54,364 nt of DNA, taken from positions 1 through 54,364 of the forward strand of contig JABIBU010000001.1 of the NCBI GenBank assembly GCA_018652595.1. The letters run 5' to 3'. Source of the stretch: Candidatus Magasanikiibacteriota bacterium (GTDB lineage: Bacteria; Patescibacteriota; Patescibacteriia; Magasanikbacterales; UBA922). Below, in pieces: positions 6,866 through 52,094 of the stretch. The first letter of the stretch is position 1; every line of letters starts with the position of its first letter. The notes under the pieces were generated by a model, which searched no databases, was not told where the DNA came from, and saw only the letters and a program-made list of their open reading frames with translations. Both the position numbers and the translations under genes were made by a program.

Positions 6866-8164
6866 TTAATCCAACACTGTGCCATCGGGATATATTTCTG
6901 CTTCATCTATTGTGACAATTCTATCCCATCTAAAATTAAGACTCTCAAAAGCTGTTTCGTCTTTGACATGTCTCTTTTTGCCATCTTCTAGCCTGTATAC
7001 TTTGGGGTCATTTTCATATTTAATTATAGTGTAGTTGGGATGGCGGTCTGTATAGTCAATTTCAGAGCCAACGCTATATTTATCAAGTAAAGCCTCATCA
7101 ATATCTTCTATCCAGTCCCATGAATAGTTGAGAGAGTTAAATATACTTTCGGCAGTGATCCAATACTTTTCTGTACCCAAGAGTAGATAAACTTTTGGAT
7201 CGGTCACTGTCTTTACTAATGCACCATATTTTGGGTCGTACTTTGGGCCCCATGGCATGAAACCAAGGGCGTCATCTTTTGTGGAGTCTAGCTGGGTCTC
7301 ACTTACCAATACGACATCTGACCATGAATCAAAGTAGGTAAAAAAGACATCAGAGCGCTTGAATGCGCGTTTGGCACAATCTTTTGTTACATAGTATACC
7401 GCACTGTCATTTTCATTTTTGTAGGCTTGTCCCGTCTCTAGATTGCAGTCTGTTGTATCGTTGCCATAGTATGCACTATCATGTTCTTGGTCAGTTAGCT
7501 CAATGCTATCTGATACAATGATAGAGCCTCCTGATTCACCCATGATTTTGGTGTAGACTTGTTTAATACCATTGCCCAATTCTAATTTCCACTCCTTTCC
7601 ACTTGCGTAATCTTCGAAACTAACACCTTCAAATGAATTGGAATTGGAAATTGCAATTTTATCAGCATCTTTGTAGTTAAAATTGAGAGTAACTGAAGTT
7701 GTATCAGTCTTTTGGGCACCAGCGTCAATAGCAAAACCATCAATTCCTTCTTTGTCTATGCTTGGGAGCAAAATGATCGAATAGCCACTTATACTAGAAC
7801 ATGTACCGCTTGGAGTTAGCGTGATTGTGTGTTGAGATACATCACCACTACAAGTTAGTGTTATAGATGAGGCAGAATTAGTACAAGTAGATGCTGTTGA
7901 ACATCTATTGTTGCTGGTTACAGCGAAACCACTACGATTGGAAGAAGTGAGGGATACAACCGAATTAGCTTCTACGATAAATTGTACATTATTAGTATCT
8001 ACTGTAAAGGATTGAACTGAGGTATTTGTGCCTAGAGTAAAATTATTACCACCTATAGTAAGGATAGCACCCGACCCAGCACCAACGTCGTTTGCAGCAA
8101 GTGTATATAGTGGAGTCAGTATTGTGATACACAAAAACAACAAACTAAATTTTATTTTATTCAT
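6866..8164 (-). CDS. Secreted surface protein with C-terminal CPR-type repeats
   Basis: Signal peptide, Ser/Thr-rich Ig-like region, and three repeats of the form (SAVYY/PKVYL/PKVYR)..G.KR.....F..L...W..I. Confidence 0.65.
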   Translation of the reverse strand: MNKIKFSLLFLCITILTPLYTLAANDVGAGSGAILTIGGNNFTLGTNTSVQSFTVDTNNVQFIVEANSVVSLTSSNRSGFAVTSNNRCSTASTCTNSASSITLTCSGDVSQHTITLTPSGTCSSISGYSIILLPSIDKEGIDGFAIDAGAQKTDTTSVTLNFNYKDADKIAISNSNSFEGVSFEDYASGKEWKLELGNGIKQVYTKIMGESGGSIIVSDSIELTDQEHDSAYYGNDTTDCNLETGQAYKNENDSAVYYVTKDCAKRAFKRSDVFFTYFDSWSDVVLVSETQLDSTKDDALGFMPWGPKYDPKYGALVKTVTDPKVYLLLGTEKYWITAESIFNSLNYSWDWIEDIDEALLDKYSVGSEIDYTDRHPNYTIIKYENDPKVYRLEDGKKRHVKDETAFESLNFRWDRIVTIDEAEIYPDGTVLD

Positions 8165-40810: not shown

Positions 40811-41346
40811 TCCCCTCCTTTTCAAGGAGGGGTAATACATGAGCCCGAGCAAAGCGAAGAGGTGATTGAGGGGGTGGTTATAACGCTATATTAGCTATGT
40901 CAAAAATATTCAATCAAAAAAGACAAAAGCATTTGAGGAAAGAATTACGAGGAACTCTGGTAAAAAGTGAGGCTGCTCTTTGGAAGAAGTTACGTGGTAG
41001 TCAGATAGGTTTTAAATTTCGTCGCCAGCATGGTATTTGGCCTTATATTGTAGATTTTTATTGTCCCAGGGTTAAATTGGTTGTGGAAATTGATGGCTAT
41101 ACTCACATTGATGAAGAAGATTATAAAGAAGATTTAAAAAGAGAAAAATATTTAAGATCTTTGGATCTGAATATAAAAAGATACTCCAGTGGTTTTGTGT
41201 TGAAAAACATAAAAGAAACCTGCTTTGATATTTATGGTAAGTGTGTGGAGCTTAAAGGTGATTCTGAGTACACCACCCCGCCACTTCGTGTGCGCCCCTC
41301 CTCCGAAAGGAGGGGGCAAATATAATATTACCCTTCGTAAGGGGGA
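40811..41346 (+). mobile_element. DUF559 nuclease gene bracketed by inverted CCCCTCC..GGAGGGG palindromes
   Basis: Left end tcccctccttttcaaggagggg...ggggtggt; right end accacccc...cccctcctccgaaaggagggg. Confidence 0.6.
40897..41325 (+). CDS. DUF559 / Vsr-like endonuclease
   Basis: R..LR......E..LW..LR, KFRRQH.I.PYIVDFYC, LVVEIDG..H. Confidence 0.92.
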   Translation: MSKIFNQKRQKHLRKELRGTLVKSEAALWKKLRGSQIGFKFRRQHGIWPYIVDFYCPRVKLVVEIDGYTHIDEEDYKEDLKREKYLRSLDLNIKRYSSGFVLKNIKETCFDIYGKCVELKGDSEYTTPPLRVRPSSERRGQI

Positions 41347-41378: not shown

Positions 41379-44300
41379 ATGAACAAAAAAAGGGGGAATA
41401 TTTTTGGTATAAGTTTGGGTATTATAATTGTTTTATTTTTGGGCACTATTACTATTCGTAATAGTGTTTTTTCTTATGACACAACAGTAGCCCATCCTAA
41501 TATTGTGGACCTGGCTGCTAAAGTTTATAATGAGGATTCTTTTGAGAAATTGACTGATCAGCAAATTACTTGGATGAGACAAGGTGCAGAAGATGAGGAT
41601 ATGCCGATTCGATGGATGAATCATTTTTATGATCCAGTTTATAATGTTGGTTTTAAGTCATCATACCTAACTGCAAAAGATTGGTCAGGGGCTAGTGAAA
41701 AACAGCGCGATTATTCTCTAGGTGACAAATCATGGCAAAGAGCAATAAGTGATTATCAAGATGGTAATAGCGAGGAAGCTTTTCAGGCTTTGGGCCATGT
41801 CTTACATCTTATAGCTGATATGAGTGTGCCTGCACATACTCGCGATGATGCTCATCCAGAGGGAGATTCGCTGGAGCAGTTTATAAAATACAATTGGGAT
41901 ATTTTGTACGCTGGGTTGCAAGAAATTGATATGGATTTAACTTATTATTCTAGATTGGATTATTATTTTGATAATTTGGCAAATTATTCTAATAATAATT
42001 TTTATAGCGATGATACTATTGAAAGCGATAAATATAAGAACATAATTATTGATTATTATAATGAAAAAATTAATGATAATGGTAATAGTATTATATTGGC
42101 AATTTCTGATCAAGATATTTATGCCCATGTACAGCGAGGTACTTTGTGGAAAGGTGATTTGGAAAAGAGCTTAAAAAACCAAATAGTCCTAGCCGACTAC
42201 ACTAAACACCTCCTTCCAAAAGCAGTTAGTCATAGTGCTGGTGTTATAAAGTTATTTTTTAAAGAAGTAGAAAAGGAGCATGATTTTGATTTGAATAAAA
42301 ATAAAATTAGTTTTGTCGGTAAAATGGGAAATATGCTTGGTTGGGGAGTAGAAAAATTAGCTGGTCTTAAGCAATATTTTGGTGGTGGAAAAGAAGTGGT
42401 AAGAGCAGATGAAAATACTGTTTTGTCGGTAATGAATCCAGGCTCCGCTAAAGCTATGCCGGACAAGGTGATTACGAAAGAGATAGATGTCGTAGAACCA
42501 ATTTACTACGGACCACCAAAGCCAACAATTGTTTATACCGCTCTAGAACCGGAAATCGAGGTAAAAGAGCCGGAAGCGCTAGTAAACATTCCAGTACCAC
42601 CAAGTTTTCCTAAGATTGATATCGAGACAGAAATAGTAGTGGATGCGGAAGTGATTGACGAAGTGGAGGAAAACGAGGTTGTTGAAGAGAAAAAAGTTTA
42701 TCATTATGGAGGTGGTGGAGGATATTCTGCTCCAGTAGTCGAACCAGACACAGAACCAGTTCTTGATCCTATAACACCAACATCTACATCCACTAGCACG
42801 CCTTCAGATGATGGAGAGGGATCAAGTGATGGTGGGGAGGAAGATGAGGAAGTTGTAACTTCTACTTTACCAACTATTCAGATAACCAGTCATCAGGCTT
42901 CAAGTTATACCAATGTAACATCTACAATTATTACAGGTACTAGTAGTGAAAGCATGGTGCGAGTTTTTATAAATACCAGCACAGTAGAGGTAGGTACCAG
43001 TTCTACCTGGCAAGTGGAAGTTGATTTAGTAGAAGGAGAAAATAGTTTTGAAATTTTTGGAGAAGATAGTGTTGAATTACGGAGTGTTACTAGTACAATA
43101 GAAATTATTTTGGATACCACTGCGCCAGAAGTTTTGAGTGTTGAAACAGCGCAGACTGAGTTTGCTACACCGACAATCCGAGTTAGTTGGATTGTTGAGG
43201 ATGTGGGTGTAGGTATATCTTATTATGATTTGGAATATAATACAGATTCTGGTGATTGGTTAGGGTTGGCAACTAGCACCACCAGTACGACCTATGATTT
43301 TATTGGTGAAAATTTACACGAGTATAATTTCCGTATTAAGGCTTATGACAGTTTTGATTATGTATCTGAGTGGGTTACAAGTAGTTCAACTCTTACTGAT
43401 TGGCCTAAGAGTGTAGTTGTTAATGAAATCGCTTGGATGGGTACTTCTGTGGCAAAGACTTCAGATGAGTGGTTGGAATTATACAATAATACTGATGAAA
43501 CGATTGACCTGACTGGTTGGAGAATATTGGTTTCTGGCGATGAGATAAATTGGGATAATACGGATCATGTTATTCCAGCCAAAGGTTATTATTTATTAGA
43601 GAGAAGCGATGATGATACTGTTTTTGGTGTTGATGCAGATGGTATTTTTACTTTATCTGGTGGATTAGGTAACAGCGGAGAGAATGTAGTTCTCATGAAC
43701 AGTGTTAGTTCTACTATAGATCAGGTTGATTGCTCTTCTGGTTGGTTTGCAGGTGTTACAAATAATGGTTATCGCTCCATGGAGCGTTTGAATCCGAGTG
43801 ACCCTGGTAGTATAAGTGGTAATTGGCAAACCAGTGAGTCGGTCGCGCCAAAAGGAAGACCATATGGCGGAGATGTTATTTATGGCTCTCCAGGCTACCA
43901 GAATACTGCTTATTGGTTTCTAAAAGGTGATCTAAGCTTCCATTATGCAGATTTGATAGTTGATAACAAATTAACTCTAACTAAGGCTAGCAGTCCTTAT
44001 TTAATAGATTATTCAACTGAAATTCTAGGTGGTTTGAAAGTAGAAGTAGAGCCAGGAGTGGTTTTGATGGGAATAGATAGGAGTTCTTATATTAATATAA
44101 AAGGCGATTTGATTTTAAATGGTACAGCAGAGGATCCGATTATATTTACCTCAGCTTTGGATACAAATTATGTTCAACAAAATTTAACAACTTTGACTGA
44201 TGAAACTCCACAGGCGGGTGATTGGTCGAGAATTGAAATAGAAGAAGGTGGTAGTCTGCAGGCTGAGAGTGTTAAGTTTTTTTATGGTGGGCAGACTTTT

Positions 44301-45320
44301 ACAAAAGGAACAGGGTGGGTTTATGGTACCAAGTGGATATCCCAGGTTTTGCGTAATACTGGTGGCACAGCTAATTTGAATAATGTTGAATTTGCGAATA
44401 ATTATATTGATGGAGTAAATCCAGATTACAATACAGTTGTTTGGGTCGAGGCACCTCTGGGCTATAGCGCTAGCACTACGATTGAAAATAGTATTTTGGA
44501 TGCAGGTTACACAGCTGTTAATTTTTATGGACAAAATAATGGACAGACAGTTTCGGGTGTCCTTGAGAATAATGTATTGAAAAACTTTACTGATCCAGAA
44601 GCAATTATAAAGGTTAGTAATAGTGAACCAAAGATTAATGGTAATTTTTTAGAAAATAACACAAGTGATTATATTGATATGGGTGGTTTTGTCTTGAGCA
44701 GTGACTTTACTTTGAAGCAAGATCAAAAATATTTATTTTCTAATATTGAAGTGCCCGTGGACAAGATATTAACAATTGAACCAGGGGTTGATGTTAAATT
44801 GAGTGGCTATATAAAAGTAGATGGTAGTCTACAAGCCAATGGCGAAGTAGGTAATCCAATCAATTTTATACCTAGAGATAATTATTGGAATATAATGTTG
44901 TTTAATAATTCTAGCTCTAGTTTGTCTAACGTAAATATAACAAGGGGTAATGGTGGTGGAGGACTGCGCGCCCCAAACAAGCGCGGTATGGTGACTGCTG
45001 AAAATTCAACTGTCAGTTTTGATAGTGTTAATTTTATGGATGCAGAACGACCATATAATATGCTTTATCTAGAAAATTCAGATATAAATATCAAAGATAG
45101 CATCATTTCATGGACAGACAACTACACCGGATCAAAAAATATCGATGGAATAATGTTTAAGAGTGGAAAACTACATTTAGATAGCGTGACTTTTAATAAT
45201 ATGAAGCGAGGAGTTGAGATTATGAGTGGGGGAGTAATAACTATGGATAATATGAATCTCGGCCACTTCCAAAACATAGCAGACCTAAACTGGTGGCCGG
45301 CGAGTGCTCTGAGCATGTAA
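41379..45320 (+). CDS. Large surface protein: Zn phospholipase C/P1-nuclease-like domain, linker, Ig/FN3, lamin-tail domain, beta-helix
   Basis: N-terminal TM; H...EDED...NHFYDP and LGHVLHLIADMSVPAHTRDDAH...E; VVNEIAWMG...EWLELYN...IDLTGW (lamin-tail domain); GTAEDPIIFTS repeats. Confidence 0.8.
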   Translation: MNKKRGNIFGISLGIIIVLFLGTITIRNSVFSYDTTVAHPNIVDLAAKVYNEDSFEKLTDQQITWMRQGAEDEDMPIRWMNHFYDPVYNVGFKSSYLTAKDWSGASEKQRDYSLGDKSWQRAISDYQDGNSEEAFQALGHVLHLIADMSVPAHTRDDAHPEGDSLEQFIKYNWDILYAGLQEIDMDLTYYSRLDYYFDNLANYSNNNFYSDDTIESDKYKNIIIDYYNEKINDNGNSIILAISDQDIYAHVQRGTLWKGDLEKSLKNQIVLADYTKHLLPKAVSHSAGVIKLFFKEVEKEHDFDLNKNKISFVGKMGNMLGWGVEKLAGLKQYFGGGKEVVRADENTVLSVMNPGSAKAMPDKVITKEIDVVEPIYYGPPKPTIVYTALEPEIEVKEPEALVNIPVPPSFPKIDIETEIVVDAEVIDEVEENEVVEEKKVYHYGGGGGYSAPVVEPDTEPVLDPITPTSTSTSTPSDDGEGSSDGGEEDEEVVTSTLPTIQITSHQASSYTNVTSTIITGTSSESMVRVFINTSTVEVGTSSTWQVEVDLVEGENSFEIFGEDSVELRSVTSTIEIILDTTAPEVLSVETAQTEFATPTIRVSWIVEDVGVGISYYDLEYNTDSGDWLGLATSTTSTTYDFIGENLHEYNFRIKAYDSFDYVSEWVTSSSTLTDWPKSVVVNEIAWMGTSVAKTSDEWLELYNNTDETIDLTGWRILVSGDEINWDNTDHVIPAKGYYLLERSDDDTVFGVDADGIFTLSGGLGNSGENVVLMNSVSSTIDQVDCSSGWFAGVTNNGYRSMERLNPSDPGSISGNWQTSESVAPKGRPYGGDVIYGSPGYQNTAYWFLKGDLSFHYADLIVDNKLTLTKASSPYLIDYSTEILGGLKVEVEPGVVLMGIDRSSYINIKGDLILNGTAEDPIIFTSALDTNYVQQNLTTLTDETPQAGDWSRIEIEEGGSLQAESVKFFYGGQTFTKGTGWVYGTKWISQVLRNTGGTANLNNVEFANNYIDGVNPDYNTVVWVEAPLGYSASTTIENSILDAGYTAVNFYGQNNGQTVSGVLENNVLKNFTDPEAIIKVSNSEPKINGNFLENNTSDYIDMGGFVLSSDFTLKQDQKYLFSNIEVPVDKILTIEPGVDVKLSGYIKVDGSLQANGEVGNPINFIPRDNYWNIMLFNNSSSSLSNVNITRGNGGGGLRAPNKRGMVTAENSTVSFDSVNFMDAERPYNMLYLENSDINIKDSIISWTDNYTGSKNIDGIMFKSGKLHLDSVTFNNMKRGVEIMSGGVITMDNMNLGHFQNIADLNWWPASALSM

Positions 45321-45347
45321 CATATAACATGACCTTCCTAAAGGAGG

Positions 45348-45454
45348 GTTTTTTTGTACTTGACATTTTGGGGAAAATGGTATAGTATGTTTATTATGTT
45401 CTATTTACCTGAGTCCATGATGGGCGAAGGTTTTTCACTGAAGGGGGAAGTTCG
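45348..45454 (+). promoter_or_regulatory. Cassette 1 promoter, leader hairpin and RBS
   Basis: TTGACA-N17-TATAGT, acct-gagtccatgatgggcga-aggt hairpin, AAGGGGG; homologous to 45909-46013. Confidence 0.75.
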
Positions 45455-45769
45455 ATGACAAAGAGTGCACATGTGTTTAGGCTCCGGGAAGGAGTCGAAG
45501 TGGAAATTCCCAGGTGGATGTTCTTTACGGAGGCGAAGGAGCCTGATGCCGAGGGTGGTATCACCCCGATGATCACGCGTATCAAGGGTGTCGGCGGGGG
45601 CAAATTCACCTTCCGATCCATGTCGGAACTCGATCCGAGTGACGATGACCTGACTGGGATCGTGGGGTTCATCCCGCGTTTCGCCCCAGGTGACATTCTC
45701 GTGCTCAACCGTGTGGAGGTTGGTGGAGAGAAGGGGATCCGCAACTTGCGCTTCCTGCCCAAGACCTAG
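45455..45769 (+). CDS. Orphan protein (cassette 1 cargo)
   Basis: Promoter and RBS upstream; GC-rich relative to the window; ends ACC TAG within the shared trailer. Confidence 0.7.
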   Translation: MTKSAHVFRLREGVEVEIPRWMFFTEAKEPDAEGGITPMITRIKGVGGGKFTFRSMSELDPSDDDLTGIVGFIPRFAPGDILVLNRVEVGGEKGIRNLRFLPKT

Positions 45770-45915
45770 AGACGCTCGTCTCTCAAGCTCGTCCGGGCTA
45801 GGTTTCATCCGTTCATTAAGTAGTAGGAGGATAGGAGGTGGTCTTTGAGCCCAAGGCTCACTGTGTCCACCTCCTGAAATTGATTTTTTTATTCCACCTG
45901 AGAGGTGGTTTTTTT
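45763..45915 (+). repeat. Structured 3' trailer copy 1 (98 bp identical to copy 2) plus terminator
   Basis: 45801-45898 equals 46561-46658; aggaggtgg/ccacctcct stem with inner tgagcc/ggctca hairpin. Confidence 0.92.
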
Positions 45916-46013
45916 GTACTTGACTTTTTGAAAAAAATAGTGTAGTATATTTGCTATGCTATGTTTACCTAAGCCTATGGTGGGTGAAGGTTTTTTTCAA
46001 GGGGGTTTCTTTT
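45909..46013 (+). promoter_or_regulatory. Cassette 2 promoter, leader hairpin and RBS
   Basis: TTGACT-N17-TGTAGT, acct-aagcctatggtgggtga-aggt hairpin, AAGGGGG. Confidence 0.7.
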
Positions 46014-46526
46014 ATGCCGATGAGAAATTTGGAGAATTGTTTGATTGCGTTTGAGTTCGGAACTGTAGAAGTCGGGTTCTGGAAGGGGGGTCGGGTTCGT
46101 GCTCTCAAGTCTGCATTCGTCGCTTGGGAGATGAGAAAAACGGAGATTCCGGAGGTTCCCATTTCTCCGGCACTCGGTGGTAAGGGATATTACACCCCGA
46201 TCGAGAATGTCCTCTGGGACAATCACGATGTCCTCAATGGGCAGTTCGGTTATCCCAAGGGGTTCGTTGCCATTCAGGCTTTTCAGCAGGAGGGTGGTTG
46301 CTCTTGCGGCTTCCCCGGTGCTGGATGCGGTGGTGGTGGTTGCGACGACTGCAACTGCGATCCATCTGTGGAGTTCGTCTCCACCGAGTCGAGTCATCGC
46401 GATGATGGTCCATGCGATGGGTGTGTGGCATGTCATGGTGGCGATGATTGTCCATGCGATGGGTGCGTCGATGACTTCTGTTCTGAGTGTGCTCACAATG
46501 TCCCGCAGCAGTCTGCTACGACCTAG
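46014..46526 (+). CDS. Orphan protein with a Cys/Asp/Gly-rich metallothionein-like C-terminus (cassette 2 cargo)
   Basis: Likely start ATG 46014 after AAGGGGG; CSC, CDDCNC, PCDGCVACH, CPCDGC and CSEC. Confidence 0.7.
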   Translation: MPMRNLENCLIAFEFGTVEVGFWKGGRVRALKSAFVAWEMRKTEIPEVPISPALGGKGYYTPIENVLWDNHDVLNGQFGYPKGFVAIQAFQQEGGCSCGFPGAGCGGGGCDDCNCDPSVEFVSTESSHRDDGPCDGCVACHGGDDCPCDGCVDDFCSECAHNVPQQSATT

Positions 46527-46673
46527 AGACATTTCGTCTCTCCTGTCCATCTCTGGGCTGGGTTTCATCCGTTCATTAAGTAGTAGGAGGATAGGAGGTG
46601 GTCTTTGAGCCCAAGGCTCACTGTGTCCACCTCCTGAAATTGATTTTTTTATTCCACCAATAGGTGGTTTTTT
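46520..46673 (+). repeat. Structured 3' trailer copy 2 plus terminator
   Basis: Direct repeat of 45763-45915; the identical core is offset by 760 bp. Confidence 0.92.
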
Positions 46674-46735
46674 GATATTTGAATTAAACATCAAAAAATG
46701 TTAGTATATAGTCATGAATATTAATAAATAAATAT

Positions 46736-48259
46736 ATGAAAAAAGGTCTAATATCCTTAATTTTGGTAACCTTTGTTTTTGCTCCGGTTCTTGCATTGGC
46801 TCAAGCGGAGACTGCATTTGATGAGATACCAGAAGAAGAAAAAATGATTGAACCGATTATTACAGCAGAGGAATTTGTTCGAGTGGACAAGAAGCTTATT
46901 TTGGATGCATTTCAGTCTTTGGTAAACAAAGATATTTCTGGGACCGCTATATATACTTGGCAGTTTGGTGATGGTTTTTATGAATCAGCTGAGCAGGTCG
47001 TACATCAGTATTCAAAAGTTGGTACATATACTATCACCCTTACCATGAGACAGGGTGAGGAGACAGAAGAGGTGACAAAGGATATCTTTGTTTATGATAA
47101 AAAAGCCTTGCTCGTAACAGACAAATCAAAGGAAGAGGAGTTGACACTAATAGATGAGCAAGCCAGAGAGAACGGTGTAGGTTTGCAGACCTTGTCACTG
47201 CTCTCAAAGGACGGTGGTTTTTTGGCTGAAGATAAATTATTACAACAAATTAATGAACTAAGCGATTATATAAATGATTCGGACTTGCTGATCTTTTATA
47301 GTAGGTCCGCTACTGGTTTGCAGGTTTTTAGTCGGTTTTTTCAGGGTCTAAAGGCGGAAGACAAAAAAATTATTGCCAATAAATTTATTACTGTTTTGAC
47401 CGATACCAGTATGGATGTGACAGGTAATTTTGCATATCAGGCTTTCAAAATTATTCAACCAGATTTTATACTCCTTAGTCGTCCAGAGGCTTTTGGTCCG
47501 CTTTTTTCAGAAAAAGATTATGATGCTCTGCCTGACATCTTGCGTAGTCGAGGAGTAGAGTATAGGATGGTAGATGAAAAAGAAGAAAAAAATCCAGTAT
47601 TTGTCTTTTCTCATCTTAGTACTTGGCTTTTGAGTCGTGGTATTACACCTAGTACTATTTATTTGATACTGATGATTCCTTTCCTTAGTTTTTTTGTGAT
47701 ATTTTTTAGACAAGTCGTGGGTTTGAGTACATTTGGTGTGTATACCCCAATTATGATAGTGGCATCGTTTTTTATTCTAGGTATCGCATTGGGGCTTATC
47801 ACTTTTCTTTTTGCTGTAGTAACTAGTTATGCTGTGAAGCATATTATTAATAAATTTGATTTATTATATTTACCAAAAGTTGGTTTGAATCTGAGTGTTG
47901 TGTCCCTTTCATTTTTGTTGGTAATAGTTTTGGCAATTTTACTTGATTTCAATGTCTCCTTTTCTTTGGCAATATTCCCGATGCTTGTGATGTCCAATGT
48001 GGCAGAAAAGTTTATGGCAGCGCAGACCGAAGAAGGTTTTCGCGGAGCTTTGTTTGGTGTAATTGAGACTTTGGTGGTAGTGGTGGTATCATACTATATT
48101 ATAATCTGGCATTATTTTAATAATCTTATAATGTCTTGGCCAGAGCTTATACTGTTGCCAATGCTTTTGACTTTGCTTTTGGCCAAGTTTAGTGGTCTTA
48201 GACTTAGTGAGTATTTACGCTTTAGAAGCTTATTTTCTGAACACGCAGAAGAAGAATAA
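46736..48259 (+). CDS. PKD-domain protein with a C-terminal 7TM (7TM_transglut-like) domain
   Basis: Signal peptide, YTWQFGDG..HQY...GTY (PKD); RQVVGLSTFGVYTP, IFPMLVMS..AEKF, GLRLSEYLRFR. Confidence 0.85.
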   Translation: MKKGLISLILVTFVFAPVLALAQAETAFDEIPEEEKMIEPIITAEEFVRVDKKLILDAFQSLVNKDISGTAIYTWQFGDGFYESAEQVVHQYSKVGTYTITLTMRQGEETEEVTKDIFVYDKKALLVTDKSKEEELTLIDEQARENGVGLQTLSLLSKDGGFLAEDKLLQQINELSDYINDSDLLIFYSRSATGLQVFSRFFQGLKAEDKKIIANKFITVLTDTSMDVTGNFAYQAFKIIQPDFILLSRPEAFGPLFSEKDYDALPDILRSRGVEYRMVDEKEEKNPVFVFSHLSTWLLSRGITPSTIYLILMIPFLSFFVIFFRQVVGLSTFGVYTPIMIVASFFILGIALGLITFLFAVVTSYAVKHIINKFDLLYLPKVGLNLSVVSLSFLLVIVLAILLDFNVSFSLAIFPMLVMSNVAEKFMAAQTEEGFRGALFGVIETLVVVVVSYYIIIWHYFNNLIMSWPELILLPMLLTLLLAKFSGLRLSEYLRFRSLFSEHAEEE

Positions 48260-48261
48260 TT

Positions 48262-50625
48262 ATGAAAAAGATATCCTTTATAGAAAAAGCTAGTGGAATA
48301 TTGGGAATGAACGCCCGTAATCTTTTGTATGTGGGTAGATACAATACTCGTGCGAGTAAAAAATTTGCGGATGATAAAATCTTTACAAAAAACTATCTTA
48401 ACTCTCGTGGAGTGGGTGTGGCTAAGATCTTTAATATAATCAAGAACCATAAGGAGCTCAGGACTTTTGATCCAAAAAGTTTACCAGATAGTTTTGTGAT
48501 AAAACCAAATCGTGGTTTTGGGGGAGAGGGAATAACCGTTATTGGTTCAAAAAAGGGAAATAAGTTTGTTAGCGTTAATGGTATTGAATATACTTGGCGT
48601 GATTTGTATCGTCAGCTCATTGCAATTTTGGATGGTAAGTACGCTATATCTGGTCTGTCCGATCAGGTCATTATAGAAGAGATGCTTATAATGCATGATA
48701 GTTTCAAGCGATTTACTTCGGTAGGTTTGCCTGATGTGCGTATTATCGTTTTCAACTATGTACCTATTATTGCAATGTTGCGTTTGCCTACAGAGGAGTC
48801 TGGTGGAAAAGCAAATCTGCATATGGGTGCAGTGGGTGTTGGAATTGATATTGCCACTGGCAAGGCTACATATGCTGTCCAGCGTAACAAATTTATTCAT
48901 CGCCTGCCAAATGGTGAAAAAATACGCGATATTCAGGTTCCCAATTGGAATGAGGTTTTGTTGACCGCTGCTCGAGCTCAGCATGCTAGTCAGATTGGTT
49001 TTTTGGCAGTCGACATTGTTATTACCACGACTGGTGTAAAAATTTTGGAACTCAATGCTAGGGCAGGACTTTCGGTACAGATTGCAAATCAGATTCCATT
49101 AAAAGCCAGACTAAAAAAGGTAGCAGATCTAAAAGTGCCTAGCCCAGAAAAAGGGGTAGAGGTCAGCAAGACCTTGTTTAGCTCTAATTTGCCAGAAGAA
49201 AAAAAAGAAGAAAAAAAAGAAGACAAGCCAACCATAGGGCTTTTTGAGTATATCAATGTCTTGAATACAAAGCATAAAAATTTGCTCGCAAAAATTGATC
49301 CTCATGCAGAAGATTCTTATCTAGATGATAGGTTTGATAATATAAAAAGTAAGGCTGGTTTTGTAGATATAAAAATGAAGCAAAGGAGAATTACTCTACC
49401 GCTAAAGTTCAAAGATCTGCAATCAGAAAAAGCCGATCTTATTATTGCTGGACGACATTTGACCGACTTTGTAATTGATCTAAATTTGAAGCAACCTCCG
49501 AAATTAAAAATAACAAATAAAAAAACAGACGAAGGTGCAGATGAAAAGATGATTCAAAATATTGATAAAAAGATTTTTGAGATTGAGAGTAAAATAAATA
49601 CAATTGGTGCTATTAGGCCGACTAATTTGGATCAGGAAAAAGCAAACTTTTTGGCAGACCCTACCAAGTCGCCAGTGTTTTTTTATAAAAAACCAGTAGA
49701 GAGTATTGAACAGCACAAACGCGAATTAAAGTCATTGCCTAGAGAGATTGATCATCCGCTGGCAAAAATTTATTTGAAAAAAATAGATGAAGTTAGAGCT
49801 AAATTGGATTTGATGGAAGCTGTGGATTCATCTAGATTCCAAGCTATTTCAGAGCGCCTTTATGGTAAGGCCGATAAACTGCTTTATGATAAGGCGGTTC
49901 GTTATATTCATGACAACCCTATTGAAGTAGATGAAAGCAAGATGTTAAGTACAAAAATAATTATAAAGCGGTTGGAGAAATTTTTAAAGGACAAAAAATT
50001 ATCAAAATGGAAATTGGTTTTGCGCGAAGATGCTACAGCTGATATAGCCGTTAATAAGAGTGGTACTATATTTTTGAGAGACGGGGTAGAATTTAGTGAA
50101 AATAGACTAAAGGCTATTATCGCTCATGAAATAGAGACTCATGTCTATCGATTGGAAAATGGACGCGAACAAAAGTATAAGATTTTTGAAAAAGGAACTG
50201 CGGGGTACCTTACTACCGAAGAAGGGTTGGCAATTTATAATCAAAAACAGTTGGGTATTCCTTTGGGTGAAAAAGATATTTGGCCAGCCTTGCGCGTGAT
50301 TGGGGCTTATTTGGCGGATGAGATGAGTTTTGTAGACTTGTTTCACTATATGAAGGAACACTATAGTTTGGATGATGAGTCGGCGTGGAAGACATGTGTA
50401 AAAGCAAAGAGAGGATTATCAGACACTTCGCAAAAACAAGCTTTTACCAGAGATGTAATTTATTTCCGTGGATTTTTGGCTGTGACAGAGTATTTGAAGC
50501 AAAATCCAGAAGAGGGGTTACACAACTTATATATTGGAAAGCTTGCTATAGTTGATCTACAGCTTTTGGGTGATTTGAAGGAGTATAAGGTGAAGTATAT
50601 GCCAGAAGAGATATTGAAGGAGTAG
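48262..50625 (+). CDS. ATP-grasp peptide ligase (alpha-L-glutamate ligase-like) fused to a degenerate aspartyl-protease-like domain and a DUF1704/MATCAP-like metallocarboxypeptidase
   Basis: ILGMNARN, ADDK, FVIKPN.G.GGEGI, PDVRIIV, AMLRLPT..S.GKANLH.GA, LELNAR.GL..QIAN; IG..E...AKID; AHEIETH...N and TEEGLA, FTRD..Y.RG. Confidence 0.85.
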   Translation: MKKISFIEKASGILGMNARNLLYVGRYNTRASKKFADDKIFTKNYLNSRGVGVAKIFNIIKNHKELRTFDPKSLPDSFVIKPNRGFGGEGITVIGSKKGNKFVSVNGIEYTWRDLYRQLIAILDGKYAISGLSDQVIIEEMLIMHDSFKRFTSVGLPDVRIIVFNYVPIIAMLRLPTEESGGKANLHMGAVGVGIDIATGKATYAVQRNKFIHRLPNGEKIRDIQVPNWNEVLLTAARAQHASQIGFLAVDIVITTTGVKILELNARAGLSVQIANQIPLKARLKKVADLKVPSPEKGVEVSKTLFSSNLPEEKKEEKKEDKPTIGLFEYINVLNTKHKNLLAKIDPHAEDSYLDDRFDNIKSKAGFVDIKMKQRRITLPLKFKDLQSEKADLIIAGRHLTDFVIDLNLKQPPKLKITNKKTDEGADEKMIQNIDKKIFEIESKINTIGAIRPTNLDQEKANFLADPTKSPVFFYKKPVESIEQHKRELKSLPREIDHPLAKIYLKKIDEVRAKLDLMEAVDSSRFQAISERLYGKADKLLYDKAVRYIHDNPIEVDESKMLSTKIIIKRLEKFLKDKKLSKWKLVLREDATADIAVNKSGTIFLRDGVEFSENRLKAIIAHEIETHVYRLENGREQKYKIFEKGTAGYLTTEEGLAIYNQKQLGIPLGEKDIWPALRVIGAYLADEMSFVDLFHYMKEHYSLDDESAWKTCVKAKRGLSDTSQKQAFTRDVIYFRGFLAVTEYLKQNPEEGLHNLYIGKLAIVDLQLLGDLKEYKVKYMPEEILKE

Positions 50626-50645
50626 CTAGTTTATAAGATTTAAAC

Positions 50646-50672
50646 AAAAAAACCACTAAGGGTGGTTTTTTT
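50646..50672 (+). terminator. Terminator
   Basis: aaaaaaaccac-taagg-gtggttttttt. Confidence 0.75.
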
Positions 50673-50726
50673 GTTTGTGTTATATATGCTATAATGAATA
50701 TAGATATTATTCTGTTTATTATATAT

Positions 50727-52094
50727 ATGAAAAATAAAATTCACAAAAAAGCATACGTTGTGGCAGTAGACATGGGCTATGGTCATCAGCGAGCAGCCGA
50801 ACCTTTGCGTGATATTGCGACAGCACCAGAATTTATGGGGGGAGGCGAAGGGTATATTATCAATGCCAATAAGTATGCTGGTATTCCAAATTCTGATACA
50901 AGAAAGTGGGAAGGTGGTCGTAAGGTTTATGAGCGGATTTCACGTATGAAGCATTTGCCAATTGTGGGTGAATGGGTTTTTGGTATTTTAAATTATATTC
51001 AGAGAATTGAGCCATTTTATCCCAAGCGTGATTTGTCTGGTAGTACCTTGCAATTGAAGCAAATATATAAATGGATAAGAAAAGGTTGGGGAAAAGATTT
51101 GATAGAAAAATTAAATAAAAAGCCCTTGCCATTTATTGCTACTTTTTTTACTCCAGCATTTTTTGCTGAAGAACATGGTTATAAAGGTGAAATTTATTGT
51201 ATTTGTACCGATACAGATATTTCTAGAGCGTGGGCGCCACTAGAACCAGCCAAGACCAAAATAAAATATTTGGCCCCCAATCGTCGAGTCAAAGAACGTT
51301 TGCAAGAGTATGGTGTTCCAGCTAAACAAATTTTTGTGACAGGTTTTCCTTTACCCAAAGAAAATATTGGTGGTAAGAGTTTAAAAATTTTAAAACAAAG
51401 CATTGCTTCTAGAATTGCCAACCTTGATCCAGAAAAAAAATATCGCAAAAAATATCGCAAAACCATTGAACAGTTTTTGGGCGCTGAGTATTGCGATGAA
51501 AGTTGCATAGTAGAGCATCCATTGACTATTACTTTTGCAGTTGGTGGGGCTGGAGCACAAAGAGAGTTGGGGGTAGAGATTTTGACTAGCTTACGAGATT
51601 ATATTGACAAAGGTAAAATAAGACTGAATTTGGTGGCGGGTACTCACAATGATGTCTATCTTTATTATCAAAAGCATATAAAGAAGTTAGGATTATTAAA
51701 AAAACAAAATGGTCATGTAAATGTTTTGTATGCCAATAATAAATGGGAATATTTTACAGCCTTTAATCAATTACTATTGACTACTGATTTGCTCTGGACC
51801 AAGCCAAGTGAGCTGTCTTTTTATACTGGTCTAGGTATACCAATTATAATGGCACCGCCAATTGGTGCTCAAGAAGATTATAATCGTGCCTGGTTGGATT
51901 CAGTGGGTGGCGGTGTGGATCAGTTGGATCCCAAGTTCGCCAATGAATGGCTTTTTGATTGGCTAAAGTCTGGCTGGCTAGCAGAGGCTGCTATGGAAGG
52001 ATTTCTCGATGCGCCCAGAAATGGTGCTTATCATGTAGAAGAAGTGGTGTTGAAGGGCAAGAGGAGTGAGATTGAGGATTTGCACTTATTGTAA
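50727..52094 (+). CDS. GT-B fold glycosyltransferase-like protein (MGDG synthase-like)
   Basis: Likely start MKNK at 50727; MGYGHQRAA, TD...RAW, VTGFP, DLLWTKPSE, GIP....P.G.QE..N. Confidence 0.75.
   Translation: MKNKIHKKAYVVAVDMGYGHQRAAEPLRDIATAPEFMGGGEGYIINANKYAGIPNSDTRKWEGGRKVYERISRMKHLPIVGEWVFGILNYIQRIEPFYPKRDLSGSTLQLKQIYKWIRKGWGKDLIEKLNKKPLPFIATFFTPAFFAEEHGYKGEIYCICTDTDISRAWAPLEPAKTKIKYLAPNRRVKERLQEYGVPAKQIFVTGFPLPKENIGGKSLKILKQSIASRIANLDPEKKYRKKYRKTIEQFLGAEYCDESCIVEHPLTITFAVGGAGAQRELGVEILTSLRDYIDKGKIRLNLVAGTHNDVYLYYQKHIKKLGLLKKQNGHVNVLYANNKWEYFTAFNQLLLTTDLLWTKPSELSFYTGLGIPIIMAPPIGAQEDYNRAWLDSVGGGVDQLDPKFANEWLFDWLKSGWLAEAAMEGFLDAPRNGAYHVEEVVLKGKRSEIEDLHLL

Follow-up and report, generated by a model that had tools for sequence, protein, structure and literature searches.

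A seven-helix membrane protein with a glutamate-ended tail and a fused ATP-grasp–MATCAP enzyme form a candidate tail-editing pair in a Magasanikiibacteriota bacterium

Results

Two adjacent genes encode a membrane protein and a three-domain enzyme

We analyzed 54,364 nucleotides (nt) of DNA from a Candidatus Magasanikiibacteriota bacterium (assembly GCA_018652595.1, contig JABIBU010000001.1, positions 1 to 54,364), a stretch that we call the window. The source genome is 0.96 Mb long, 95% complete, and about 36% G+C. The window carries two neighboring open reading frames (ORFs) on the + strand, as are all features described in this section. Gene A (46736 to 48259) encodes 507 amino acids (aa): a signal peptide, a PKD domain, an alpha/beta ectodomain, a 7TM_transglut seven-transmembrane (7TM) region, and a cytoplasmic tail with a Glu end. 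Gene B (48262 to 50625) encodes a three-domain enzyme of 787 aa. The TAA stop codon of gene A (48257 to 48259) is followed by TT and then by the ATG of gene B at 48262, a gap of 2 nt. A consensus scan found pattern matches on both sides of the pair. Ahead of gene A are a terminator-like hairpin with a T run (46654 to 46667) and promoter-like hexamers (46672 to 46712) that likely mark the start of the unit. A second terminator-like hairpin, with a 17-pair stem and a T run (50641 to 50677), begins 16 nt past the stop codon of gene B and likely marks its end. Given these flanking signals and the tight coupling, the two genes look like a bicistronic unit. An earlier note on this DNA had reported both ORFs, the 2-bp gap, an AEEE end on the first product, and an HEIETH motif at 50125 to 50142, and ORF calling and translation gave the same result for each.

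The N-terminal part of the gene A product is predicted to lie outside the cell. Residues 1 to 22 (46736 to 46801) make up a putative signal peptide with a hydropathy peak at aa 4 to 22. An extracytoplasmic PKD domain follows at aa 59 to 115 (46910 to 47080; Pfam PKD_4, E value of 1.3e-10, aa 64 to 115), and then an alpha/beta ectodomain at about aa 122 to 285 (47099 to 47590). We modeled aa 23 to 300 with AlphaFold (predicted local distance difference test score [pLDDT], 86.1). The modeled PKD sandwich resembles the PKD domains of ColG and ColH (Foldseek E value of 3.5e-8; VIA Z of 13.6). The alpha/beta domain, which has no Pfam match, was modeled as a flavodoxin-like fold with a five-stranded parallel sheet, and its structural matches were generic flavodoxin-like ones only, among them HemD (Z of 10.1) and CheY-like receivers (Z of 9 to 9.5). 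We found no transglutaminase domain in gene A with Pfam, and the fold searches listed none covering the ectodomain. In contrast, RloB, the 7TM protein of the Pseudomonas aeruginosa Rlo system, has an inactive transglutaminase at the place of the alpha/beta ectodomain, and the NCBIfam RloB model matches gene A only at aa 304 to 500 (59.3 bits against a cutoff of 900).

Seven transmembrane helices span about aa 305 to 488 (47648 to 48199), as judged from hydropathy and from the match to 7TM_transglut (PF14402; E value of 3.9e-29, aa 307 to 499). The remaining residues, aa 489 to 507 (48200 to 48256), form the tail RLSEYLRFRSLFSEHAEEE. In alignments the tail consists of a GLRxxExxRF motif, a variable spacer, and a terminal Glu, and in gene A it ends in ...SEHAEEE. 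Only 5 of the 692 ORFs of at least 150 aa in the source genome end in EE. With the N-terminal domains outside and seven helices to cross the membrane, the tail is therefore predicted to be in the cytoplasm, where ATP and the enzyme would also be. The Lys/Arg-rich loops seen in the hydropathy analysis agree with this topology.

The first domain of gene B, at aa 19 to 287 (48316 to 49122), is an ATP-grasp ligase. It belongs to ATPgrasp_ST (PF14397; E value of 5.9e-61, 206.5 bits against a cutoff of 31.4) and is of the RloC kind. The NCBIfam model TIGR02291 (RimK-related ligase-like) matches with an E value of 3.6e-79, but the 266 bits fall below its cutoff of 314.2, and the domain is not an equivalog of that family. 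The score for RimK proper (PF08443) is also below the cutoff (20.3 against 21 bits). We found no match of gene B to the tubulin tyrosine ligase family TTL (PF03133) at an E value of 0.1 or better; homologues with the ligase and retropepsin-like domains only, called short forms here, scored 13 to 21 bits. A profile search of the PDB gave no solved ATP-grasp relative at an E value of 1e-3 or better.

The last domain, at aa 445 to 787 (49594 to 50622), is a MATCAP-type zinc carboxypeptidase domain. It is a member of PF08014, formerly DUF1704 (E value of 8.3e-46, match at aa 468 to 778; 157 bits against a cutoff of 27), and scores below the equivalog cutoff of TIGR02421, the QEGLA family (176.6 against 338.65 bits). 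Human MATCAP (KIAA0895L) matches this part of gene B with an E value of 1.5e-11 (PDB entry 7z5g), or 5e-26 when a profile is used; the human MATCAP entries matched were 7z5g, 7z5h, and 7z6s. The HEIETH motif corresponds to H622 to H627 and aligns with HEIGTH of human MATCAP, in which the TEEGLA motif of gene B (aa 652 to 657) is conserved too. The family calls of the earlier note (ATP-grasp, DUF1704-like, and 7TM_transglut) were thus upheld by hidden Markov models (HMMs).

We aligned gene B with fusion homologues, that is, enzymes with the ligase and MATCAP domains in one chain. The alignment held 43 fusions that are 33 to 77% identical to gene B (29 of 121 database proteins plus 14 from the loci described below). 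In the ATP-grasp domain, K81, G85, G88, G90, E139, D158, R160, K183, N185, D251, E263, N265, and R267 are present in all 43. We take K81 to be the Lys of the KPN motif, G85, G88, and G90 to belong to the Gly-rich loop, and E263 and N265 to be the Mg ligands of the E-x-N motif. In the peptidase domain, H622, E623, T626, H627, E654, G655, L656, A657, K716, R717, G718, and Y734 are likewise present in 43 of 43, and HExxxH was found in 120 of the 121 database fusions. Because these active-site residues are invariant, both catalytic domains look active.

The middle domain resembles a retropepsin that has lost its catalytic motif

Between the two catalytic domains, at about aa 320 to 432 (49219 to 49557), lies a degenerate retropepsin-like domain of the RimB/RloA type. 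Pfam gave no match for gene B within aa 290 to 465. The family (PF05618) was found above its cutoff in four of five short forms and in two of five other fusions that we tested. We compared a profile of 37 middle domains that lack the Asp-Thr-Gly (DTG) motif with one of 63 that bear it. The two profiles matched with hhalign at a probability of 99.8% and an E value of 3e-29, and an HMM built from the 37 DTG-less domains retrieved all 63 DTG-bearing ones. The AlphaFold model of the domain (pLDDT, 82.5) has RloA of Pseudomonas fluorescens as its best PDB match (9g58_B; Foldseek E value of 1.6e-4, template modeling score of 0.55); the next matches are to Ddi1 retropepsin domains, RloA2, and DUF785. 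Judged by these profile-profile and model comparisons, and not by a direct Pfam match, the middle domain is a PF05618-type retropepsin homologue.

The catalytic Asp-Thr/Ser-Gly of the family is replaced in gene B, where the corresponding residues read D346-P347-H348 (the DPHA sequence, D346 to A349, lies at 49297 to 49308). A regular expression for the Asp at this site matched 86 of the 121 fusion homologues; 72 of the 86 have DPH and none has DTG or DSG, while 35 of the 121 went unmatched. The retropepsin domain of gene B has thus lost its catalytic motif and is probably inactive. The earlier note had called an inactive RimK-associated aspartyl-protease-like domain from DPHA alone, and the retropepsin homology together with the replaced motif bears this out.

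The fusion is found in Patescibacteria and is linked to a PF14402 gene

We found 1,482 matches among 8,000 scored candidates in a database search. The best 120 of these are all 761 to 811 aa long, and all carry both PF14397 and PF08014. The named relatives of both proteins are all from Patescibacteria (the candidate phyla radiation [CPR]), for example, Magasanikbacteria, Kerfeldbacteria, and Peregrinibacteria. We also surveyed 401 genomes sampled evenly from the phylum. Since kin in such a sample are not independent, the survey figures are descriptive of this sample only and do not constitute a test. A relative of the ligase occurs in 127 of the 401 genomes; of these 127, the full fusion is present in 22, and in a further 2 it is split over adjacent frames. 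The full fusion was found in 0 of 3 genomes of the window's own family and in 1 of 6 genomes of one other family of its order. PF08014 was detected in 74 of the 401 genomes, 70 of which also have the ligase, and in 0 of 14 control genomes of named model organisms.

For comparison of whole loci, we combined 30 loci taken from genomes with 80 taken from metagenome contigs (the best 80 of at least 566 relatives, from 597 candidate stretches checked). A PF14402-like gene lies directly upstream of the ligase on the same strand in 97 of 111 loci, and all 16 upstream proteins that we tested for PF14402 were positive. The counts that follow cover 109 loci, the window among them (L002), after exclusion of a fragment (L001) and a locus split by a stop codon (L027). 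Two pairs of loci in the sample are identical (L035/L037 and L083/L084). All 109 ligases have the middle retropepsin domain. From these comparisons, the ligase-retropepsin fusion is the common form in the phylum, and what sets the present enzyme apart is the gain of a MATCAP domain together with the decay of the older eraser.

Partner proteins of MATCAP fusions keep a terminal glutamate

To describe the tails, we used two independent sets, the 120 closest partner proteins and the partners in the 109 loci. Among the 120 closest partners, 111 end in Glu. The terminal Glu run has one residue in 20, two in 75, three in 11, and four in 5. The nine partners without a terminal Glu are nine of the ten most distant matches.

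Among the 109 loci, the tail end followed the state of the enzyme. Short forms make up 63 of the loci; all 63 have an intact D-T/S-G motif, and none of the 55 known tails ends in EE (8 are unknown). These tails are mostly basic, with a mean net charge of +1.4 over the last six residues. The MATCAP domain is fused in 46 loci, and the D-T/S-G motif is lost in 39 of these. The tail ends in EE in 30 of the 39, does not in 5, and is unknown in 4. In the 7 fusions that retain the motif, we found EE in 2 (L011 and L041) and other ends in 5. EE tails reach 9 to 12 residues beyond the GLRxxExxRF motif, and most non-EE tails reach 6 to 8. The residue before the Glu run is variable (A in 11, I in 7, Q in 5, and others), and the last eight residues take 28 different forms among the 32 EE tails.

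The Glu codons of gene A lie just ahead of gene B, and we considered whether they simply form a purine-rich site for ribosome binding and carry no significance in the protein itself. Translational coupling of this kind fits the 14 of 30 EE loci in which the stop-to-start gap is 4 nt or less and the Glu codons stand at the Shine-Dalgarno position, as well as the 2-nt gap of the window, but EE is also kept at gaps of 8 to 12 nt (8 of 30 loci) and of 16 to 94 nt (8 of 30 loci). Of the 60 codons for the last two Glu residues, 48 are GAA, and a GAAGAA stretch resembles GGAGG poorly. Furthermore, coupling in the 56 non-EE loci, which have no such Glu codons, is equally close or closer (gaps of -26 to +137). 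On these sequence comparisons the ribosome-binding-site explanation would account for little, and we regard it as very improbable.

We built a quick IQ-TREE phylogeny of the 109 loci from the ATP-grasp domain alone. One clade of 39 rows (98 in the Shimodaira-Hasegawa-like approximate likelihood ratio test [SH-aLRT]) unites the DTG-less, EE-tailed fusions, and a second clade, of 7 rows (SH-aLRT, 99), holds the DTG-retaining fusions. One locus with a DTS motif and an EE tail (L024) sits in the second, DTG-retaining clade. Two other members of that clade, L019 and L020 (genomes G076 and G051), have a second, weaker MATCAP-like match in a neighboring gene of about 490 aa, downstream on the opposite strand.

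Surrounding genes

The 1.4 kb between gene A and the next large gene upstream (45321 to 46735) hold only overlapping ORFs on both strands: 45401 to 45808 (-), 45951 to 46526 (+), and 45975 to 46694 (-). None of the ORFs in this interval has a Pfam match, and an Rfam scan of it gave zero matches at an E value of 1 or better. The large gene itself (41379 to 45320) encodes a 1,313-aa protein, probably secreted or displayed on the surface, that has a lamin-tail domain (4.3e-11) and weak matches to Glucodextran_B and zinc phospholipase C. Just upstream of it, 40897 to 41325 encodes a small DUF559 protein (7.3e-24), a family with a Vsr-like endonuclease fold. Downstream of gene B, past the terminator-like hairpin, 50694 to 52094 encodes a 466-aa DUF6938 protein (2.2e-15), and the closest of the metagenome loci (L032, 85% identity) has this gene conserved in the corresponding place. 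The larger ORFs between 40 and 54 kb are on the + strand. The GC skew is strongly positive over positions 8000 to 54364 (0.18 to 0.30), and six tRNA genes are scattered across the window. A search for sequencing runs that contain the locus listed 10, all of them DNA runs labeled as marine metagenome, and no RNA run.

Discussion

A proposed tail-editing mechanism and the evidence against it

As the best-supported of the readings considered, we propose that gene B reversibly adds amino acids to, and trims them from, the tail of its partner. From the sequence comparisons, and by analogy with known ligase-peptidase pairs, we consider this proposal to stand about evenly balanced between right and wrong. 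It builds on the domain identities, the intact motifs, the linkage of the two genes, and the conservation of the Glu end, and the predicted topology fits it. Genes A and B would together make up a membrane-bound tail-editing module. The gene A product would be a surface-exposed, sensor-like protein with its PKD and alpha/beta domains outside, seven helices, and a Glu-ended tail in the cytoplasm. The gene B product would be a cytoplasmic enzyme whose ATP-grasp domain extends the free C-terminal carboxylate of the tail in an ATP-dependent manner. By analogy with RimK, the added amino acid would most likely be Glu. The MATCAP domain would strip the added residues singly, back to the encoded Glu end. 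The retropepsin-like domain would be the remnant of an older, endo-acting eraser of the RimB/RloA type that lost its catalytic Asp-Thr-Gly, and it is probably kept as a scaffold or as a binder of the acidic tail. The tail as substrate, the identity of the added amino acid, the opposition of the two activities on one substrate, and any signaling output are inferences.

The stepwise pattern among the loci clearly shows one eraser taking the place of another within a single polypeptide, from an active retropepsin, through both peptidase domains together, to a dead retropepsin with MATCAP and a Glu tail.

Several results weigh against the tail as the target. The minimum number of changes on the tree is two for the fusion, four for DTG, and four for EE. 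With so few changes, the co-occurrence of EE, fusion, and DTG loss therefore comes down to essentially one or two events in evolution, and correlation tests lend no support to an association: only three to four independent pairs were available for EE versus DTG loss or fusion, and the sign test gave P values of 0.5 to 1. In an approximately unbiased (AU) test, a tree with L024 placed within the main clade was not rejected (P = 0.068), for a group that was chosen after the tree had been seen, and the apparent second origin of EE in L024 is therefore not secure. Ten fused loci have no EE (L014, L016, L018 to L022, L053, L068, and L070). Five short-form loci have MATCAP as a separate gene close by (L026, L029, L031, L057, and L099); none of their tails ends in EE, and MATCAP therefore does not need an EE partner. 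Because short-form tails are basic, the 7TM tail appears unlikely to be the acceptor in short-form systems, and the ancestral substrate may have been something other than the tail. Finally, MATCAP-family proteins of proteobacteria sit with an N-formylglutamate-amidohydrolase-like (FGase) domain and a GshB-type ligase and have no 7TM gene. This context looks like small-molecule or peptide chemistry, and bacterial relatives of MATCAP therefore need not act on protein tails.

The earlier note had also named the acidic tail as a target. That suggestion gains comparative support from the 111 Glu ends among 120 partners and from the occurrence of EE with MATCAP-fused, DTG-less enzymes and in none of the 55 known short-form tails, but the events are few and no test is significant. 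The case for the tail, as read from these comparisons, thus rests on the long-term conservation of the Glu end and not on a correlation test.

Comparison with Rlo, RimK/RimB, and the tubulin cycle

Operons that combine such 7TM, ligase, and protease genes were reportedly surveyed by Iyer et al. in 2009. The closest known system is rloABC of P. aeruginosa. In a 2025 mBio report, RloA is described as a secreted retropepsin, RloB as a 7TM protein with an inactive transglutaminase, and RloC as an ATP-grasp protein, and deletion of rloB or rloC suppresses the hypo-osmotic lethality of a triple mutant lacking RloA proteases (PMC12239564). The same report gives the product of the Rlo system as not known (PMC12239564). 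Both rloABC and the window have a PF14402 7TM protein, a TIGR02291/ATPgrasp_ST ligase, and a retropepsin-like domain in one operon. They differ in several respects. The gene A product has the 7TM part of an RloB-type partner and lacks its inactive transglutaminase ectodomain, having PKD and flavodoxin-like domains with no transglutaminase detected. The protease domain of the window is fused into the cytoplasmic ligase, with no signal peptide and no D-T-G, unlike the secreted, active RloA. A MATCAP carboxypeptidase has been added. Lastly, the 7TM tail of gene A runs several residues past the end of the NCBIfam RloB model, which falls at about residue 500 of 507, and has a Glu end.

The second system is RimK and RimB. 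According to a 2025 J Biol Chem article, RimK extends the Glu end of ribosomal protein S6 (RpsF), and the added Glu is taken off by RimB, a retropepsin-like endopeptidase that needs five to six contiguous Glu residues and stimulates poly-Glu synthesis (PMC11957791). Here too an ATP-grasp ligase is paired with a retropepsin-like eraser, and writer and eraser can be one polypeptide. The earlier note had read gene B as a writer and eraser in one enzyme. Both active sites do look intact, but the idea is not new in itself, since an active RimB-RimK hybrid, RimBK, has been published (PMC11957791). The domain order is reversed between the two: RimB is N terminal in RimBK, and the ligase is N terminal in gene B. 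Moreover, the ligase of gene B is not RimK proper, its dead eraser has been replaced by an exopeptidase of another fold, and its proposed target is a membrane protein.

The S6 protein of the source genome does not have the Glu end of RpsF. It ends in ...DIDLSNV, and with this end S6 is unlikely to be a target; we rejected it as a candidate substrate, and with it the suggestion of the earlier note of S6 as a second substrate. The protein (positions 80 to 829 of L113, contig C7) has 249 aa, including a Lys/Glu/Ala-rich C-terminal extension of about 150 residues.

Both systems bear on a different explanation, one already suggested for rloABC, in which the product of the ligase is a peptide bound to some carrier or a free one, either acidic or poly-alpha-glutamate. 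The 7TM protein would then be an anchor or exporter, the peptidases would set the length of the product, and the Glu tail would do no more than prime the reaction or mimic a docking site. Free poly-alpha-L-glutamate is indeed made by RimK, with stimulation by RimB (PMC11957791). According to the Rlo report, the P. aeruginosa protease is periplasmic and the ligase cytoplasmic (PMC12239564), an arrangement that would fit an exported product. The tails of short-form CPR proteins are basic and do not end in Glu in 55 of 55 known cases, and the shared ancestral function therefore probably did not involve the tail. A free product leaves unexplained, though, why terminal Glu is fixed just in those lineages whose eraser needs a free C terminus, and both peptidase domains of gene B are cytoplasmic. 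We know of no transport function for PF14402. We give this explanation roughly one chance in four.

The third comparison is with tubulin, where the ATP-grasp ligases TTL and TTLL act against the peptidases MATCAP, vasohibin, and CCP. MATCAP trims acidic tubulin tails. Gene B and the tubulin cycle have in common an ATP-grasp ligase, a MATCAP-family zinc peptidase, and an acidic tail ending in -EE. In the tubulin cycle, however, separate proteins do the writing and the erasing, and they act on a cytoskeletal polymer, whereas gene B is one protein. The ligase of gene B is of the RloC kind and not TTL, and the likeness to tubulin is an analogy of mechanism, with homology for the peptidase domain only.

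Proteobacterial QEGLA proteins provide the last comparison and bear on yet another explanation. On a Vibrio sp. HDW18 plasmid (L114, 5080 to 7071), a QEGLA protein is fused to an FGase domain. On plasmid pSR7 of Aminobacter sp. SR38 (L115, 4406 to 8150), we found an FGase gene, a QEGLA gene, and a GshB-like ATP-grasp gene in this order. There is no 7TM gene within 6 kb of either QEGLA gene. In Photobacterium, MATCAP-family and FGase-like/ligase genes have adjacent locus tags, as given in a table of PMC10308900. These systems share with the window a MATCAP-family domain linked to an ATP-grasp ligase; they differ in having no retropepsin domain, an FGase-like partner, and a ligase of the glutathione-synthetase type.

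Such neighbors would suit an enzyme whose substrate is another protein or a small molecule, for instance, a precursor of the envelope or a compound of the gamma-glutamyl or folate-like kind. The partner's Glu end would then have a binding or regulatory role only; it might, for example, be a pseudo-substrate by which MATCAP is held or inhibited at the membrane. That the proteobacterial family sits beside N-formylglutamate-amidohydrolase-like domains and glutathione-synthetase-type ATP-grasp proteins without a 7TM gene agrees with this, as does the finding that four further ORFs of the source genome end in EE. Set against it are the tight linkage of the two genes across enzymes that are only 33 to 77% identical and the lack of a Glu end on the S6 protein of the source genome. 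We consider another substrate unlikely, and less probable than a free product.

What the module may mean

A bolder form of the tail-editing proposal is a tail code, in which the 7TM receptor would store a state as the length of an extension of Glu or another amino acid on its own C terminus. One ligase-carboxypeptidase would write and erase this extension, MATCAP having displaced the retropepsin eraser. The module would then be the prokaryotic counterpart of the TTL/MATCAP cycle and possibly its relative on the peptidase side. We hold this only as a tentative idea that is more probably wrong than right, on a par with the free product.

Full-text literature searches found no paper joining ATP-grasp with DUF1704 or MATCAP, and the module is an unpublished variant of the Rlo and Rim systems. 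It comes with a fully defined candidate substrate, a tail peptide of about 19 residues, and one enzyme. Should the tail prove to be the substrate, the module would be the first in bacteria to extend the C terminus of a membrane protein reversibly, and a MATCAP-family peptidase of bacteria would for the first time have a function. Such a result would also aid the understanding of the Rlo system of Pseudomonas and Vibrio, which affects osmotic tolerance, biofilm, and antibiotic resistance.

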